A DNA stretch of 45,071 bases from Alphaproteobacteria bacterium (GCA_964201945.1 CAXNIC010000003.1:1-45071); one strand, 5' to 3'; shown: positions 21 to 18,760, counted from the first letter of the stretch. Translations and numbers: made by a program. The notes: generated from the letters alone by a model not told the origin.

Positions 21-70
21 CCTCATCAGTAGCCAGCAAGGCGCTGGCAGACCGCCCTCAGGCGGTTTCG
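21..70 (-). ncRNA. Hammerhead-like element 1 (long stem I)
   Basis: CGAAAC CGCC-UGAG-GGCG GUC U-GCCAGC/GCUGGC-UA CUGAUGAG; loop III holds the TGA stop of 58..405; next ATG at 14-12 (gene runs off the window). Confidence 0.7.
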
Positions 71-405
71 CTCGGTGCGGTGTAGCCCTTGGACATCCAG
101 AGTTGCGGCCGGATGTTGCTGAGCCAGTCGGCGACGGTCGGGATGCGACCGCCGCAGTCTTCCTGGACGTGCTGCTCGCCGATATAGCGAACGGGCACGA
201 TCTTGCCGTCCGAGTTGGTGATCGTCGGGCCGAACACGCGCTCGGCCTCGAAGATCCCCTGGCTGTGATGCCGGAGCGCCCGGTGCCGGAAGTCGGCAAA
301 GGTCTCCTTGGTTGCATCGAACCAGTCGTGGATCGGAAGGTAGTCCTCGACCTTGCCCCCCCACTTCTTCACCGAACTAGCGGCGTGGAAATGGGGATGG
401 GTCAC
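58..405 (-). CDS. Conserved hypothetical protein (DUF6915-like)
   Basis: HP..HA.SS.KKWGG..EDY..IH.WFD..K....D.RHRALRHH pattern recalled from this family; ends SETA* inside element 1. Confidence 0.75.
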   Translation of the reverse strand: MTHPHFHAASSVKKWGGKVEDYLPIHDWFDATKETFADFRHRALRHHSQGIFEAERVFGPTITNSDGKIVPVRYIGEQHVQEDCGGRIPTVADWLSNIRPQLWMSKGYTAPSETA

Positions 406-908
406 AGCTCGTGATCCGATCTATCCGACTGGATGTAGAAGTCCCGGTGGACGAGAGCGAGATGATCGGTGGCGATGGTCCAAACGAACTGGCCCTCGCC
501 CCCGTCATTGTTCTCCCAGCCGCCGTGAAGCGCCTCCAGGTGGTCATCGAACAGGCGCTCGACGGCCTCCTGCAGCATTACTTCCTCGGGCGACCGGAGT
601 GGTTTGGCGTTGAAACCGACGTACTCGACCGTCACCTTGATGGCCGAAACGTCGACTGCCTCCGCCTCGCCGAGATCGGCGCGCGCAACGTCATCCGCGC
701 ACCCTTCTTCAACCTCCTCGGCTTCCTTGCGGAAGGCGAAGGCGTCGAATGCGCCGGAGTCGCCGCTGCCGCTGTAGTTGGCGACAACCTGGGCGACGCC
801 GGCCGCAGCTAGCGCGGCGAGGATGACGGCGCGATTCCTCTTCGCTACCTCCATCCGCTTGGCGTCCTCGGCCGTCATCGAACTGCGGATCTCTTCCATG
901 CTTGTCAT
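402..908 (-). CDS. Conserved hypothetical protein (DUF6878-like)
   Basis: YSGSGDSG and GWENNDGGEG motifs; ATG at 908 follows the SD in element 2; 4-nt overlap with 58..405. Confidence 0.7.
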   Translation of the reverse strand: MTSMEEIRSSMTAEDAKRMEVAKRNRAVILAALAAAGVAQVVANYSGSGDSGAFDAFAFRKEAEEVEEGCADDVARADLGEAEAVDVSAIKVTVEYVGFNAKPLRSPEEVMLQEAVERLFDDHLEALHGGWENNDGGEGQFVWTIATDHLALVHRDFYIQSDRSDHEL

Positions 909-917
909 GGATTTCTC

Positions 918-968
918 CCTCATCAGTGCCGGCATGATCGCCGGCGACCGGGTGTCCCCCCGGTTTCG
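918..968 (-). ncRNA. Hammerhead-like element 2 (long stem I)
   Basis: CGAAAC-CGGG/CCCG-GUC-GCCGGC/GCCGGC-A-CUGAUGAG. Confidence 0.7.
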
Positions 969-971
969 TCT

Positions 972-1628
972 TTAGGCGGCGCGGCCGCGGATGCCGTGGC
1001 CGACGAAGACGATGGTCTTCGTGCGGGCCGCCGGCGCCCAGCAGAGCGCGCAGGTGCCGCAGCTCTTGGTCTTGCCCATTTGCTCCGGGCAGACCAGTCC
1101 CTCAGCTGCTCGCCCGTCGTCCGGCACATGCCAGATAACGTGCGCACCTTGGGACTGCGGTCCAGTGGAAAAACGGACCGCGAAGCGACGCCAGCGCGTG
1201 CGGCTGATTTGCCACAGCGCGCCGCCGATCTCCGTGTCCTTGGGCCAGGCGGTGTACCCGTAGCAACGCATCGCCGGGAACCTGGCCAGCCAGGACTCCC
1301 ACAGCCGGACATAGTCCAGGCTGTAGAAGTCGCCGAGCTGGTGCAGGCGCACGACGAAGCCACGGGGGTGCTGGTGCTGCTTCTCTGCGAGGGCGGCCTC
1401 GAGCTGTTTCTCGAAGGCCGGGCCCGGGTGGTGGCGCCTGGCGAACGGCATGCCATTGCCGTAGCAAGTCTCCCAGTTGGCGCACGAGCTCGGGCACGTA
1501 GCCCGCTCCTCGAGCGTCACCAGGTAGATTGGCATGCCGCGCCATTTGCCCTTCCGAACCCAGCCGCCGATCTTGTCGTTGCCGGCCGCGGAGGTGAGCA
1601 GGGGACGCGGATCATTGTGGTCGACCAC
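972..1628 (-). CDS. GP88-like Cys-rich phage protein
   Basis: TCPSSC....CY, VRLHQLGDFYS, YGYT and C-terminal CP....K..SCGTC.LC motifs; frame stays open to ~1740, so the start is uncertain. Confidence 0.7.
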   Translation of the reverse strand: MVDHNDPRPLLTSAAGNDKIGGWVRKGKWRGMPIYLVTLEERATCPSSCANWETCYGNGMPFARRHHPGPAFEKQLEAALAEKQHQHPRGFVVRLHQLGDFYSLDYVRLWESWLARFPAMRCYGYTAWPKDTEIGGALWQISRTRWRRFAVRFSTGPQSQGAHVIWHVPDDGRAAEGLVCPEQMGKTKSCGTCALCWAPAARTKTIVFVGHGIRGRAA

Positions 1629-1740
1629 CGTGGCCGGGAACCGGGTGTTGCCCGATTTAAGCCACGGTGAGTCGGCAGGCGGGCGCCAGACATTCTCCGG
1701 CGCCAGCCGAACAGACGATCGATTTGTGATTGATATGCTC

Positions 1741-1788
1741 CGTCGTCAGTGCCGGGAAGACCCCGGCAGACCGGCGGAGCCGGTTTCG
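1741..1788 (-). ncRNA. Hammerhead-like element 3 (CUGACGA, 7-bp stem I)
   Basis: Stem I UGCCGGG/CCCGGCA; N7=C; position 10.1 is C (variant). Confidence 0.65.
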
Positions 1789-1793
1789 TGTCG

Positions 1794-2117
1794 CTACAGA
1801 GCGGGTTCGGCGTCCTTGACGGTCCACATGGCGCTGATGCAGCCGAGCTCGATGTGAGCCGTGCCTCCGGTTTCCAGCCATCGCATGTGGTTGATGTTCG
1901 AGCCGTCATTGAACCCCGTGGCGCGCTGCCACCGGAAGAGCTCGAGGCTCAGGAAGCTCTGGTACTTGCCGATTCCGGGCGGGTCTTCGTCGTGCGGCCC
2001 GAGATAAGGGACGCCCCCAACGAAGATGTGCCCGTTCACCAGCACGGCAACCAAGTCGCCGTCCTCGACCTTCTGTGCGTTGGCCGCCAGAAAGGCACGA
2101 ACGTCTCTTTCCTGCAT
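1794..2117 (-). CDS. Hypothetical protein
   Basis: 107-aa ORF filling the space between two elements; GAGGAG SD. Confidence 0.75.
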   Translation of the reverse strand: MQERDVRAFLAANAQKVEDGDLVAVLVNGHIFVGGVPYLGPHDEDPPGIGKYQSFLSLELFRWQRATGFNDGSNINHMRWLETGGTAHIELGCISAMWTVKDAEPAL

Positions 2118-2124
2118 GTTGTCT

Positions 2125-2161
2125 CCTCATCAGGTTGTTCGACCGGGTCTCCCCGGTTTCG
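2125..2161 (-). ncRNA. Hammerhead-like element 4 (minimal stem I)
   Basis: CGAAAC CGGG-GAGA-CCCG GUC GAACAAC CUGAUGAG; GNRA loop III. Confidence 0.65.
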
Positions 2162-2166
2162 ACAGT

Positions 2167-17625: not shown

Positions 17626-17632
17626 GTCATCT

Positions 17633-17669
17633 CCTCATCAGGTTGAACGACCGGGTCTCCCCGGTTTCG
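17633..17669 (-). ncRNA. Hammerhead-like element 33
   Basis: GAGA (GNRA) loop III. Confidence 0.65.
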
Positions 17670-17670
17670 A

Positions 17671-17883
17671 TCAGGCGATCGCCATCAGGAGCTCCTCGGC
17701 TCCGTAGACGAACGGCCCGCCGCACTTCGCGCAATCGTAGTCGCGCGCGTCCGGCTCGCACCCGTCAGCTTCGGTTCCGCAGCTGGTGCAGAAGCCGACG
17801 TTGTCGAGCCCCTGGTTCGAGCGCTGCACGCCGTCCATGATGACGTCCGGCGTGAGGCTCGCGTGCATAGGCTTGCACAGCAT
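17671..17883 (-). CDS. Small zinc-ribbon protein
   Basis: GFCTSCG...CEPDARDYDCAKCG...VYGAEE. Confidence 0.75.
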   Translation of the reverse strand: MLCKPMHASLTPDVIMDGVQRSNQGLDNVGFCTSCGTEADGCEPDARDYDCAKCGGPFVYGAEELLMAIA

Positions 17884-17894
17884 GGCTGTCTCCT

Positions 17895-17930
17895 AAAAGA
17901 AAAAGGGCCCGATGATCTCTCATCAGGCCC
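17895..17930 (-). terminator. Intrinsic terminator overlapping a hammerhead-like core
   Basis: GGGCCUGAUGA-GAGA-UCAUCGGGCCC followed by UUUUUCUUUU. Confidence 0.8.
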
Positions 17931-17958
17931 TCGGGCAACCGGGTTGACCCCGGTTTCG
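17918..17958 (-). ncRNA. Hammerhead-like element 34 (GUU triplet)
   Basis: CGAAAC CGGG/CCCG GUU GCC-CGAG-GGC CUGAUGAG; GUU still satisfies NUH. Confidence 0.62.
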
Positions 17959-17960
17959 AC

Positions 17961-18437
17961 TTATGCGGCGACGTCCAGCCGCTCGGGCTTGGACATCGAG
18001 CTCGGCTCGATCGTCGCCATCAGGTGGAACTCGACGAAGCGGCTGGGGTCCAGCATGAACCCCGGCCGGTCGAGATCGAGATTGACCAGCCCGGACGACG
18101 CCGGCGGGACTCCGTCGGCGACGCTGAGCGTGATGTGGTACGGCTTGCCGTCCTGCCGGAAGGGCTGTGCGCCCTCGAGCATGACGCCGAGCGAGTCCAC
18201 GCGGTCGTCGACGTGACGGCCGTAGATGGTGACCAGGATGGGCTTCCCCGTCCGGATCTTCTGAGCGATCTCCGCGGGCAGGCCCTGGAGCGCCTCCTCC
18301 CTCGACTTCGCCCCGTAGCCGAGCGTCACATGGAACGCGTGGCCGTTGGGGTGCCGAGGCGGATGGTTCTTCAGGACATGCGCCCGCAGGGTCTGCGGCA
18401 GAACCAGCTTCACGATGAAGGGTCTCTGCTTGCTCAT
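17961..18437 (-). CDS. 2H phosphoesterase family protein
   Basis: Two HxT motifs: FHVTL and YHITL(S...GVPP..S). Confidence 0.75.
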   Translation of the reverse strand: MSKQRPFIVKLVLPQTLRAHVLKNHPPRHPNGHAFHVTLGYGAKSREEALQGLPAEIAQKIRTGKPILVTIYGRHVDDRVDSLGVMLEGAQPFRQDGKPYHITLSVADGVPPASSGLVNLDLDRPGFMLDPSRFVEFHLMATIEPSSMSKPERLDVAA

Positions 18438-18446
18438 GGTGTAGCT

Positions 18447-18496
18447 CCTCATCAGATGCCAGCGGATTGCTGGTCGACCAGCCGAGGCTGGTTTCG
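18447..18496 (-). ncRNA. Hammerhead-like element 35
   Basis: Stem III CAGCC/GGCUG; stem I CCAGC/GCUGG. Confidence 0.67.
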
Positions 18497-18715
18497 TCAG
18501 GACCGTGCAGCCTTGACGAGCTGCACCATCGAGGTGAGCAGAAAGCGCTGCTCCTGCATGATGGCGTCGAGCACGATGTCGCGCACGTCGACCGGGACGA
18601 GCTCGGCGACCATTGACGATTTCGAGAAGGCCTCGTAGGCCCGCTCGCTCTCGGCGAAGCGCTTCGCGTCCAGGCACAGGCCGTTGGTGACATGGCTCGG
18701 CAATGGCTTAGACAT
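18497..18715 (-). CDS. Hypothetical protein
   Basis: 72 aa; TGA abuts CGAAAC. Confidence 0.68.
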   Translation of the reverse strand: MSKPLPSHVTNGLCLDAKRFAESERAYEAFSKSSMVAELVPVDVRDIVLDAIMQEQRFLLTSMVQLVKAARS

Positions 18716-18723
18716 TTCTGTCT

Positions 18724-18760
18724 CCTCATCAGGTTGTTCGACCGGCCGAAGCCGGTTTCG
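18724..18760 (-). ncRNA. Hammerhead-like element 36
   Basis: UUCG loop III; GAACAAC stem I. Confidence 0.65.

Follow-up and report, generated by a model that had tools for sequence, protein, structure and literature searches.

An array of type II hammerhead motifs predicted to cut the transcripts of a phage accessory arm into gene units

The role of bacterial and phage hammerhead ribozymes has been called "largely elusive" in a 2019 review (PMC6765202). Tandem hammerheads of prophages cleave in vitro and in E. coli, and in 2011 it was proposed for prophage hammerhead clusters that they cut transcripts into single-gene mRNAs (PMC3088659). Cleavage in Desulfovibrio vulgaris cells has been reported for three type II hammerheads located near phage-like genes (PMC8782182). 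Here, we describe an array of type II hammerhead motifs between the small genes of a phage or prophage arm. It lies on a 45,071-nt stretch of DNA from an Alphaproteobacteria bacterium (GCA_964201945.1, CAXNIC010000003.1:1-45071), which we will call the window. The window is an entire 45-kb contig of a metagenome bin of 75% completeness and 5.04 Mb; the link between bin and phage is unproven. We consider it probable that the transcripts of this accessory arm are cut by the hammerheads into gene units with defined ends. This kind of layout has been known since 2011; what looks new is how large the array is and that it contains a class of elements without stem I, and its systematic overlap with coding sequence also stands out.

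The array was detected with the search pattern CGAAAC-N9-20-GTY-N4-24-CTGANGA, which gives 37 matches corresponding to 36 distinct elements (element 21 is matched two times), every one of them on the minus strand and within positions 23 to 18760. In 100 dinucleotide-preserving shuffles the pattern is matched 0.05 times on average and once at most, and a stricter descriptor that includes stem III pairing returns 35 matches on the minus strand and none on the plus strand. Each of the 36 elements is intergenic and consists, in order, of C-GAAA, the stem III hairpin, the GUC cut site, stem I or a linker, and CUGANGA. This order of parts is that of a type II hammerhead. Since the contig end interrupts the array, it comprises at least 36 elements, and the units between cut sites are 240–1368 nt long (median 482). 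The Rfam Hammerhead_II model (RF02276) matches 23 of the elements at E ≤ 10, the best at 36.9 bits. Its only match in the rest of the 5.04-Mb bin is a single weak one (18.7 bits), and a scan of 150 other genomes of the class, made with a coarse filter, gave two single matches.

Conservation among the elements is confined to the catalytic core. All 36 share C11.1, G12, A13, A14 and the A15.1-U16.1 pair without exception; at N17, 35 elements have C and one has U. The CUGANGA box differs from CUGAUGA in eight elements, always at N7, which is its sole free position, and the G10.1-C11.1 pair is kept in 34. Stem III is a hairpin of 5–8 bp in 35 elements (element 18 is bulged); GC-to-CG swaps occur at its positions 15.4 to 15.6, and loops and linkers are variable. 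Such a pattern is predicted by selection for catalysis and would be unexpected for a signal that acts at the DNA level. The elements differ in stem I, which is a hairpin of 5–8 bp in 15 elements (class A), has 3–4 bp in element 3, and is replaced by a linker of 5–9 nt in the remaining 20 (class B).

The elements are also fused to the genes on both sides. Fourteen of the 36 upstream genes cross GAAAC into stem III and stop in loop III, with the endings KPA*, ETA*, ETG* or ETAA*, while 21 stop 4–9 nt before G12, six of them at -4. For the gene ahead of element 22 the distance is 26 nt. N17 is not crossed by any annotated gene, and the stops always lie 5' of the cut site. Downstream, 23 elements have GGAG immediately after the core, and 31 have a start codon 6–14 nt past it (the exceptions are elements 3, 6, 19, 20 and 34). 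A preliminary description of the array, made from the sequence, had already drawn much of this picture. Its 14 genes ending in or at loop III were all found, including the ten whose positions it listed, and the six genes that it placed immediately before CGAAAC are exactly those that stop at -4. It was likewise right that no open reading frame (ORF) crosses the GUC and that the 3' end of the element doubles as a Shine-Dalgarno sequence before most starts. Packed into the intergenic space in this way, the ribozyme provides 14 genes with their last 3–4 codons and their stop, and most genes with their ribosome-binding site.

The overlap leaves a trace in the DUF6915 protein encoded ahead of element 36. 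Many of its close homologues end in ..RGYxV(E/D), whereas the window protein runs on to ..APSETA; by this comparison the residues assigned to the ribozyme are an add-on. As a protein trace of hammerhead overlap in general, C-terminal tails of the "ET.." type were found in 7 of 119 close DUF6915 homologues, which is too weak a signal without the DNA. Within the set of papers searched, there was no description of stop-codon or ribosome-binding-site fusion in phage hammerhead arrays. At 15 IMG/VR loci retrieved with a pattern that requires GGAG, the neighbouring hammerheads, which were not selected by it, also run ..CUGAUGA-GGAU/GGAA..ATG, and this phage is not the only one in which a ribozyme and a ribosome-binding site are fused. 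A separate observation concerns four IMG/VR loci (L040, L042, L049 and L052, positions ~2001-2050 in each), which hold near-identical type II hammerheads (85–95% identity) between flanking genes that are otherwise unrelated or rearranged. In these hammerheads stem II has CUCC as its 5' strand, complementary to the entire GGAG ribosome-binding site.

In the mechanism that we propose, the minus-strand arm would hold the early or accessory genes of a phage or prophage and would be transcribed as one or a few long transcripts. The hammerheads would cut these at each GUC into units of one, occasionally two, genes (240–1368 nt). The upstream message would end one nucleotide past the GC-rich 6-bp stem III hairpin with a 2',3'-cyclic phosphate, and the downstream message would have a 5'-hydroxyl at its start and then, in order, stem I if there is one (the class A hairpin), CUGAUGA, the GGAG ribosome-binding site and the start codon. 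Such cutting is likely to yield single-gene mRNAs. A cyclic phosphate on a 3' hairpin and a 5'-hydroxyl are ends that resist 3' exonucleases, polyadenylation and 5'-monophosphate-dependent attack. The elements may therefore be natural insulators, through which each gene obtains defined ends of its own that withstand nucleases and a translation start independent of context; this purpose is suggested by what is known of bacterial mRNA decay. The proposal is supported by the 36 motifs found where 0.05 are expected, all on one strand and intergenic, and by phages in IMG/VR with a like layout (stop, type II hammerhead, GGA(G), ATG) in arrays of 4 and ~14–16. It also draws, by analogy, on the prophage clusters that cleave in vitro and in E. 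coli (PMC3088659) and on the three hammerheads that do so in D. vulgaris (PMC8782182). The motifs, their placement and the restriction of conservation to the catalytic core are direct observations, and from them we infer cleavage in vivo.

Several properties of the elements weigh against this proposal. None of the 36 reaches the Rfam gathering score (37 bits), and 20 are practically devoid of stem I. Stem II has 1–3 contiguous canonical pairs in 34 elements and none in elements 6 and 34; in type II hammerheads it frequently has two pairs only (PMC3088659). A pseudoknot between loop I and the 3' tail, which is important for fast cleavage and occurs in the majority of type II members, though not in all (PMC3088659), leaves no signal in the 15 class A elements, where the summed best runs amount to 50 against 49.7 with the tails of other elements. 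Four of 18 hammerheads that conform to the consensus were inactive in vitro (PMC3088659). In the 14 genes that end in loop III, the ribosome must unfold the core to reach the stop, so that translation competes with folding. The predicted accessibility of the ribosome-binding-site region is 0.40 before and 0.44 after cleavage (p 0.20), and this near constancy leaves an "unmasking" role of cleavage unsupported. The elements are thus structurally weak hammerheads, with a stem II of 1–3 pairs, whose cleavage is predicted from sequence.

The class B elements are the most unusual part of the array. Their stem I is a single pair that closes a loop of 3–7 nt, and stem III is their only stable helix, so that in ~32–37 nt they hold one real helix, one covarying 1.1-2.1 pair and a stem II of 1–3 bp. 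The 1.1-2.1 pair, formed by the first and the last linker base, is canonical in all 20 elements (13 G-C and 7 U-A), and the position therefore covaries in class B. The G-C and the U-A type may each descend from one ancestor, which would leave few independent covariation events. All 13 core nucleotides are intact in each of the 20, and variation is found in the stem III sequence, loop III and the linker. Class B is more uniform than class A: CUGAUGA is present in every one of its 20 elements, which share identical stretches of up to 27 nt.

The class B variant was found in none of the five other collections examined. An exact degenerate pattern gave no match in IMG/VR, six in GTDB genomes and eight in JGI metagenomes, all of the matches being without stem III and near the chance level. 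A blastn search with one element against phages and plasmids returned partial chance matches only. A covariance model of the class found no further match in its own genome and two weak single matches in 11 related genomes, neither of them convincing: one overlaps a gene end and is probably due to chance, and the other failed a scan for the motif plus stem III. Neither the literature search nor the passages on stem I in the 2011 paper, its supplements aside (PMC3088659), yielded a description of a natural hammerhead without stem I. Complementary 7-mers that could make a trans partner for the class B linker were not found on the same-strand arm RNA. Trans-acting hammerheads function with a helix I of three pairs, and a covalently closed version with a one-pair helix I is conceivable.

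We tentatively suggest, as a possibility somewhat short of an even chance, that the 20 stem-I-less elements are active ribozymes and the smallest natural hammerhead architecture known, so that 36 ribozymes would serve as gene-by-gene insulators. It seems unlikely, by comparison, that cleavage is limited to the 16 elements with a genuine stem I and that the class B elements are dead relics, kept as uncut intergenic punctuation because they still bring a stop codon, a hairpin at the 3' end and a ribosome-binding site. Relics of this kind would agree with the one stable helix, the single-pair stem I and the short stem II of class B, and with the failure to find a natural hammerhead of this form described in the literature; the uniformity of the class could also stem from recent copying rather than from selection. 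However, GGAG and a hairpin alone need no GAAAC, GUC or CUGAUGA, so the retention of all 13 core nucleotides in elements whose stem III, loop III and linker vary counts against decay, as does a 1.1-2.1 pair that is canonical throughout in two types. A use of the elements chiefly at the DNA level, as short conserved linkers for the homologous swap, loss or gain of cassettes with cleavage being secondary, appears very improbable. Such linkers would account for the identical runs of up to 27 nt between different elements (25 of 630 pairs share at least 20 nt), for several elements that resemble mosaics of the 5' half of one element and the 3' half of another, and for the way the two classes cluster within the array (12 runs where 18.8 are expected, p 0.015). 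The hammerhead is also the sole conserved segment between differing neighbourhoods in IMG/VR, for example L040 compared with L049 and L052. A recombination linker would nevertheless need neither conservation that tracks the core nor compensatory changes in stem III, and there are no paralogous cassettes in the array. Homologues of DUF6915 at 87 other loci (7 other alphaproteobacterial genomes and 80 viral loci) have differing neighbours, in some cases homologues of DUF932, DUF3846 or DUF6878, and no convincing hammerhead, so shuffling in this gene pool goes on without such elements. That recombination takes place at the elements is plausible as a side effect, and it is not a demonstrated function. 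Relatives of the phage were sought as well: megablast against INPHARED phages gave no match, no relative of the DUF932 protein was found in GTDB genomes, and the putative large terminase ORF has two distant relatives in IMG/VR only, both without upstream DNA, and no match in 12 genomes of the host order.

The preliminary description had gone further and proposed that each cassette could be a self-contained unit whose ends, once joined, would give a single-gene circular mRNA, with the hammerhead rebuilt and the ORF taking the place of loop II; it also saw in this unit a natural module for gene shuffling. The anatomy of a self-contained unit stands, as each unit has a ribosome-binding site, a reading frame, a stop and a 3' hairpin. 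The circular mRNA did not find support, and we give it hardly any weight. The chemistry of the ends would be suitable and each unit carries half-ribozymes at both ends; RtcB-type ligases join ends with a 2',3'-cyclic phosphate to ends with a 5'-hydroxyl, and RtcB is the known bacterial ligase for them. On the other hand, the cut products of a type II hammerhead are linked only by stem II, whose 1–3 bp would here have to close a loop of 200–1300 nt. Across the ORF, stem II pairs no better than it does between non-cognate partners, and the 25-nt cassette ends are not complementary (-10.3 vs -10.2 kcal/mol for non-cognate ends, p 0.41). RtcB was not found in the window or the 75%-complete bin, nor in any of 12 host-family genomes, six of which are at least 90% complete, and no ligase family was recognised among the 42 arm proteins. 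Neither of the two means of joining the ends, a juxtaposing pairing and a ligase, is thus seen here. The 2011 paper named circular products as a possibility; there, circular and spliced products were raised and neither was detected, with the data not shown (PMC3088659). This indirect evidence points against circular mRNAs.

The array is a compact natural test bed for asking whether ribozyme cleavage sets the stability and translation of single phage genes. Should class B prove active, this phage would insulate its genes with 36 ribozymes that, in addition, encode protein tails, stops and ribosome-binding sites; the minimal natural hammerhead would need redefinition, and very short insulator parts would become available. 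Should class B not cleave, it would be an example of ribozymes decaying into plain punctuation.

All elements are on the minus strand and are numbered in the direction of transcription. Class A begins with element 2 (18449..18496), whose upstream gene stops at -4, and element 6 (16652..16692), which has the core CUGACGA and no GGAG after it. Element 16 (12864..12908) has the core CUGAGGA and an upstream stop at -6, element 17 (12148..12195) has CUGAAGA and an upstream gene ending KPA* in loop III, and element 18 (11693..11742), with its bulged stem III, has an upstream stop at -5. Element 19 (11055..11101) is again preceded by a gene ending KPA* in loop III, and element 20 (10809..10858; core CUGAAGA) is followed by a leader of ~90 nt and a 333-aa gene. 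Between these two lies a single ORF of 49 aa (10863-11012, minus strand), hydrophobic and membrane-like, with its own AAGGAGG site. Further along the arm are element 26 (6267..6312; core CUGAGGA, upstream stop at -5), element 27 (5466..5511; RF02276 score 34.9 bits) and element 28 (4699..4745; Rfam 31.7 bits), which heads a two-gene cassette of 183 aa and 54 aa; the 54-aa ORF (3978-4142, minus strand), cassette-mate of the 183-aa gene, is hydrophobic. Element 31 (3216..3262; core CUGAAGA) overlaps a gene ending KPA* in loop III, and element 32 (2555..2602; core CUGACGA) follows a stop at -4. Element 34 (1743..1788; core CUGACGA) has the best Rfam score, 36.9 bits, and a leader of ~114 nt after it. 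Element 35 (920..968) precedes a two-gene cassette of DUF6878 and DUF6915, and element 36 (23..70) overlaps the end of this DUF6915 gene (ETA* in loop III); the next gene leaves the contig.

In element 3 (17920..17958), with its short stem I of 3–4 bp, the cut site is GUU and the core coincides in part with a terminator-like hairpin of 13 pairs followed by a U run (17903..17932, minus strand), the sole strong one in the arm. Because this hairpin pairs with the CUGAUGA box of element 3, the hammerhead and terminator folds are mutually exclusive. Element 3 could thereby switch the transcript between two fates, termination once the first three genes have been read or read-through accompanied by cleavage.

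Among the class B elements, the upstream gene stops at -4 ahead of elements 1 (18726..18760; 7-nt linker in place of stem I), 12 (14492..14524), 24 (7248..7282) and 29 (3943..3977). It stops at -5 ahead of element 4 (17635..17669), at -6 ahead of element 10 (15263..15294; 5-nt linker), at -7 ahead of element 8 (15836..15869), at -8 ahead of element 21 (9677..9712) and at -9 ahead of element 33 (2127..2161). Element 22 (8312..8344), with the distant stop 26 nt before G12, is followed by a TTG start. The upstream gene ends KPA* in loop III of elements 5 (17233..17264; 5-nt linker), 15 (13446..13480) and 30 (3612..3647), ETA* in elements 11 (15023..15054), 13 (14245..14279), 14 (13720..13753) and 23 (7518..7551), ETG* in elements 9 (15577..15611) and 25 (6636..6672; 9-nt linker), and ETAA* in element 7 (16177..16216). 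At element 21 the CCUGAUGA box recurs 2 nt downstream (9667-9712, minus strand), and the second copy contains the start codon of the 433-aa DUF932 gene.

The arm itself (58..19000, minus strand) holds ~39 small genes of 49–433 aa, ~38 of which the elements separate, and is cut off by the contig end. Its family matches include DUF932, DUF3846, DUF5983, DUF6927, DUF6878 and DUF6915, together with PAPS-reductase-like, DNA methyltransferase-like, RusA-like and GP88-like proteins; the matched families are typical phage accessory genes, and the majority of the arm genes have no family match. Sigma-70-like promoters inside the arm number zero against 2.0 expected, a result that is uninformative for a high-GC host. 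At the divergent junction, four genes of 79, 113, 126 and 129 aa (18761-20856, minus strand) have no family match and no hammerhead between them, the array beginning only at 18760. The opposite strand carries the phage structural module, recognised by family matches from 20.7 to 45 kb (20669..45071, plus strand): metallopeptidase, DUF2280, portal, Mu F-like, connector, tail tube and tail assembly chaperone, with no hammerhead motif. The putative large terminase (ORF 23213-24931, plus strand) is without a family match and is named by its position only.

A search for sequencing runs that contain positions 8761-18760 returned no RNA run. Logan contigs with DNA of the arm come from one lake metagenome study, the probable source of the window. 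In three DNA runs the arm has a depth of ~8–9, in pieces that break at elements. Joints between elements (70 to 17229, 3647 to 7531 and 15056 to 4692) were considered as rearrangements and rejected as repeat or assembly artefacts, their sides being only 21–38 nt long at a likeness cut-off of 85%. In one run, the depth over positions 1-19500 rises from ~9 to 15–25 in bins 651-1300, 3901-4550, 6501-7150 and 16251-16900, and 71 of the 83 contigs that match the arm do so only in part. The same lake sample probably holds related phages with some common cassettes or elements.

Arrays of small, promoterless genes that run one way and are separated by short imperfect palindromes are also known from integrons, whose attC arrays resemble the present one in these respects. 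The conserved bases here are those of the hammerhead core and not the attC core sites. Integrase or recombinase families were not matched by any of 63 ORFs compared with Pfam in the window, which is a contig fragment outside of which an integrase could lie; the two marks of an integron cassette array, an IntI-type integrase and attC, are thus not seen. Synthetic insulators such as RiboJ are closer in function to what we propose, as a self-cleaving ribozyme ahead of the ribosome-binding site strips the upstream context and sets a defined 5' end, like the elements described here. Unlike these elements, RiboJ-type parts are engineered and used singly, have complete stems plus a hairpin added as a separate piece, and lack any fusion to coding sequence. 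The hammerhead circular RNAs of viroids, satellite RNAs and retrozymes share the unit-length RNAs and the end chemistry (PMC6765202). They are non-coding or replicating RNAs with extensively paired cut ends that host tRNA ligases can circularise (PMC6765202), whereas the units of the array would be mRNAs with unpaired ends, and a ligase is not in evidence.

The closest described systems are the prophage clusters of Perreault et al. 2011 (PMC3088659), which the array resembles in the core, in type II topology and in the location between same-strand phage genes of variable identity. The tandem sets tested in that work were on fragments of ~2 kb, that of Agrobacterium being a triple, compared with 36 elements in 18.7 kb here. 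Unlike the members described in the 2011 paper, the present elements have no detectable pseudoknot between loop I and the tail, and 20 of them have no stem I. The terms "Shine-Dalgarno", "ribosome" and "stop codon" do not occur in the text of that paper, figures and supplements aside (PMC3088659), whereas 14 genes overlap the core here. In layout, the window is matched by the 93-kb, high-GC phage IMGVR_UViG_3300012974_000540, which has 14 sub-threshold type II matches on the minus strand within 13 kb (22425-35236). It differs in having a full stem I hairpin in all 14 elements, an A or U for C3 before UGANGA or an inserted base in 12 of the 14, and one gene family in common with the window. In this phage too, a stop precedes each hammerhead, and most hammerheads are followed by a GAGGAGACA-type ribosome-binding site and an ATG, as in the window.

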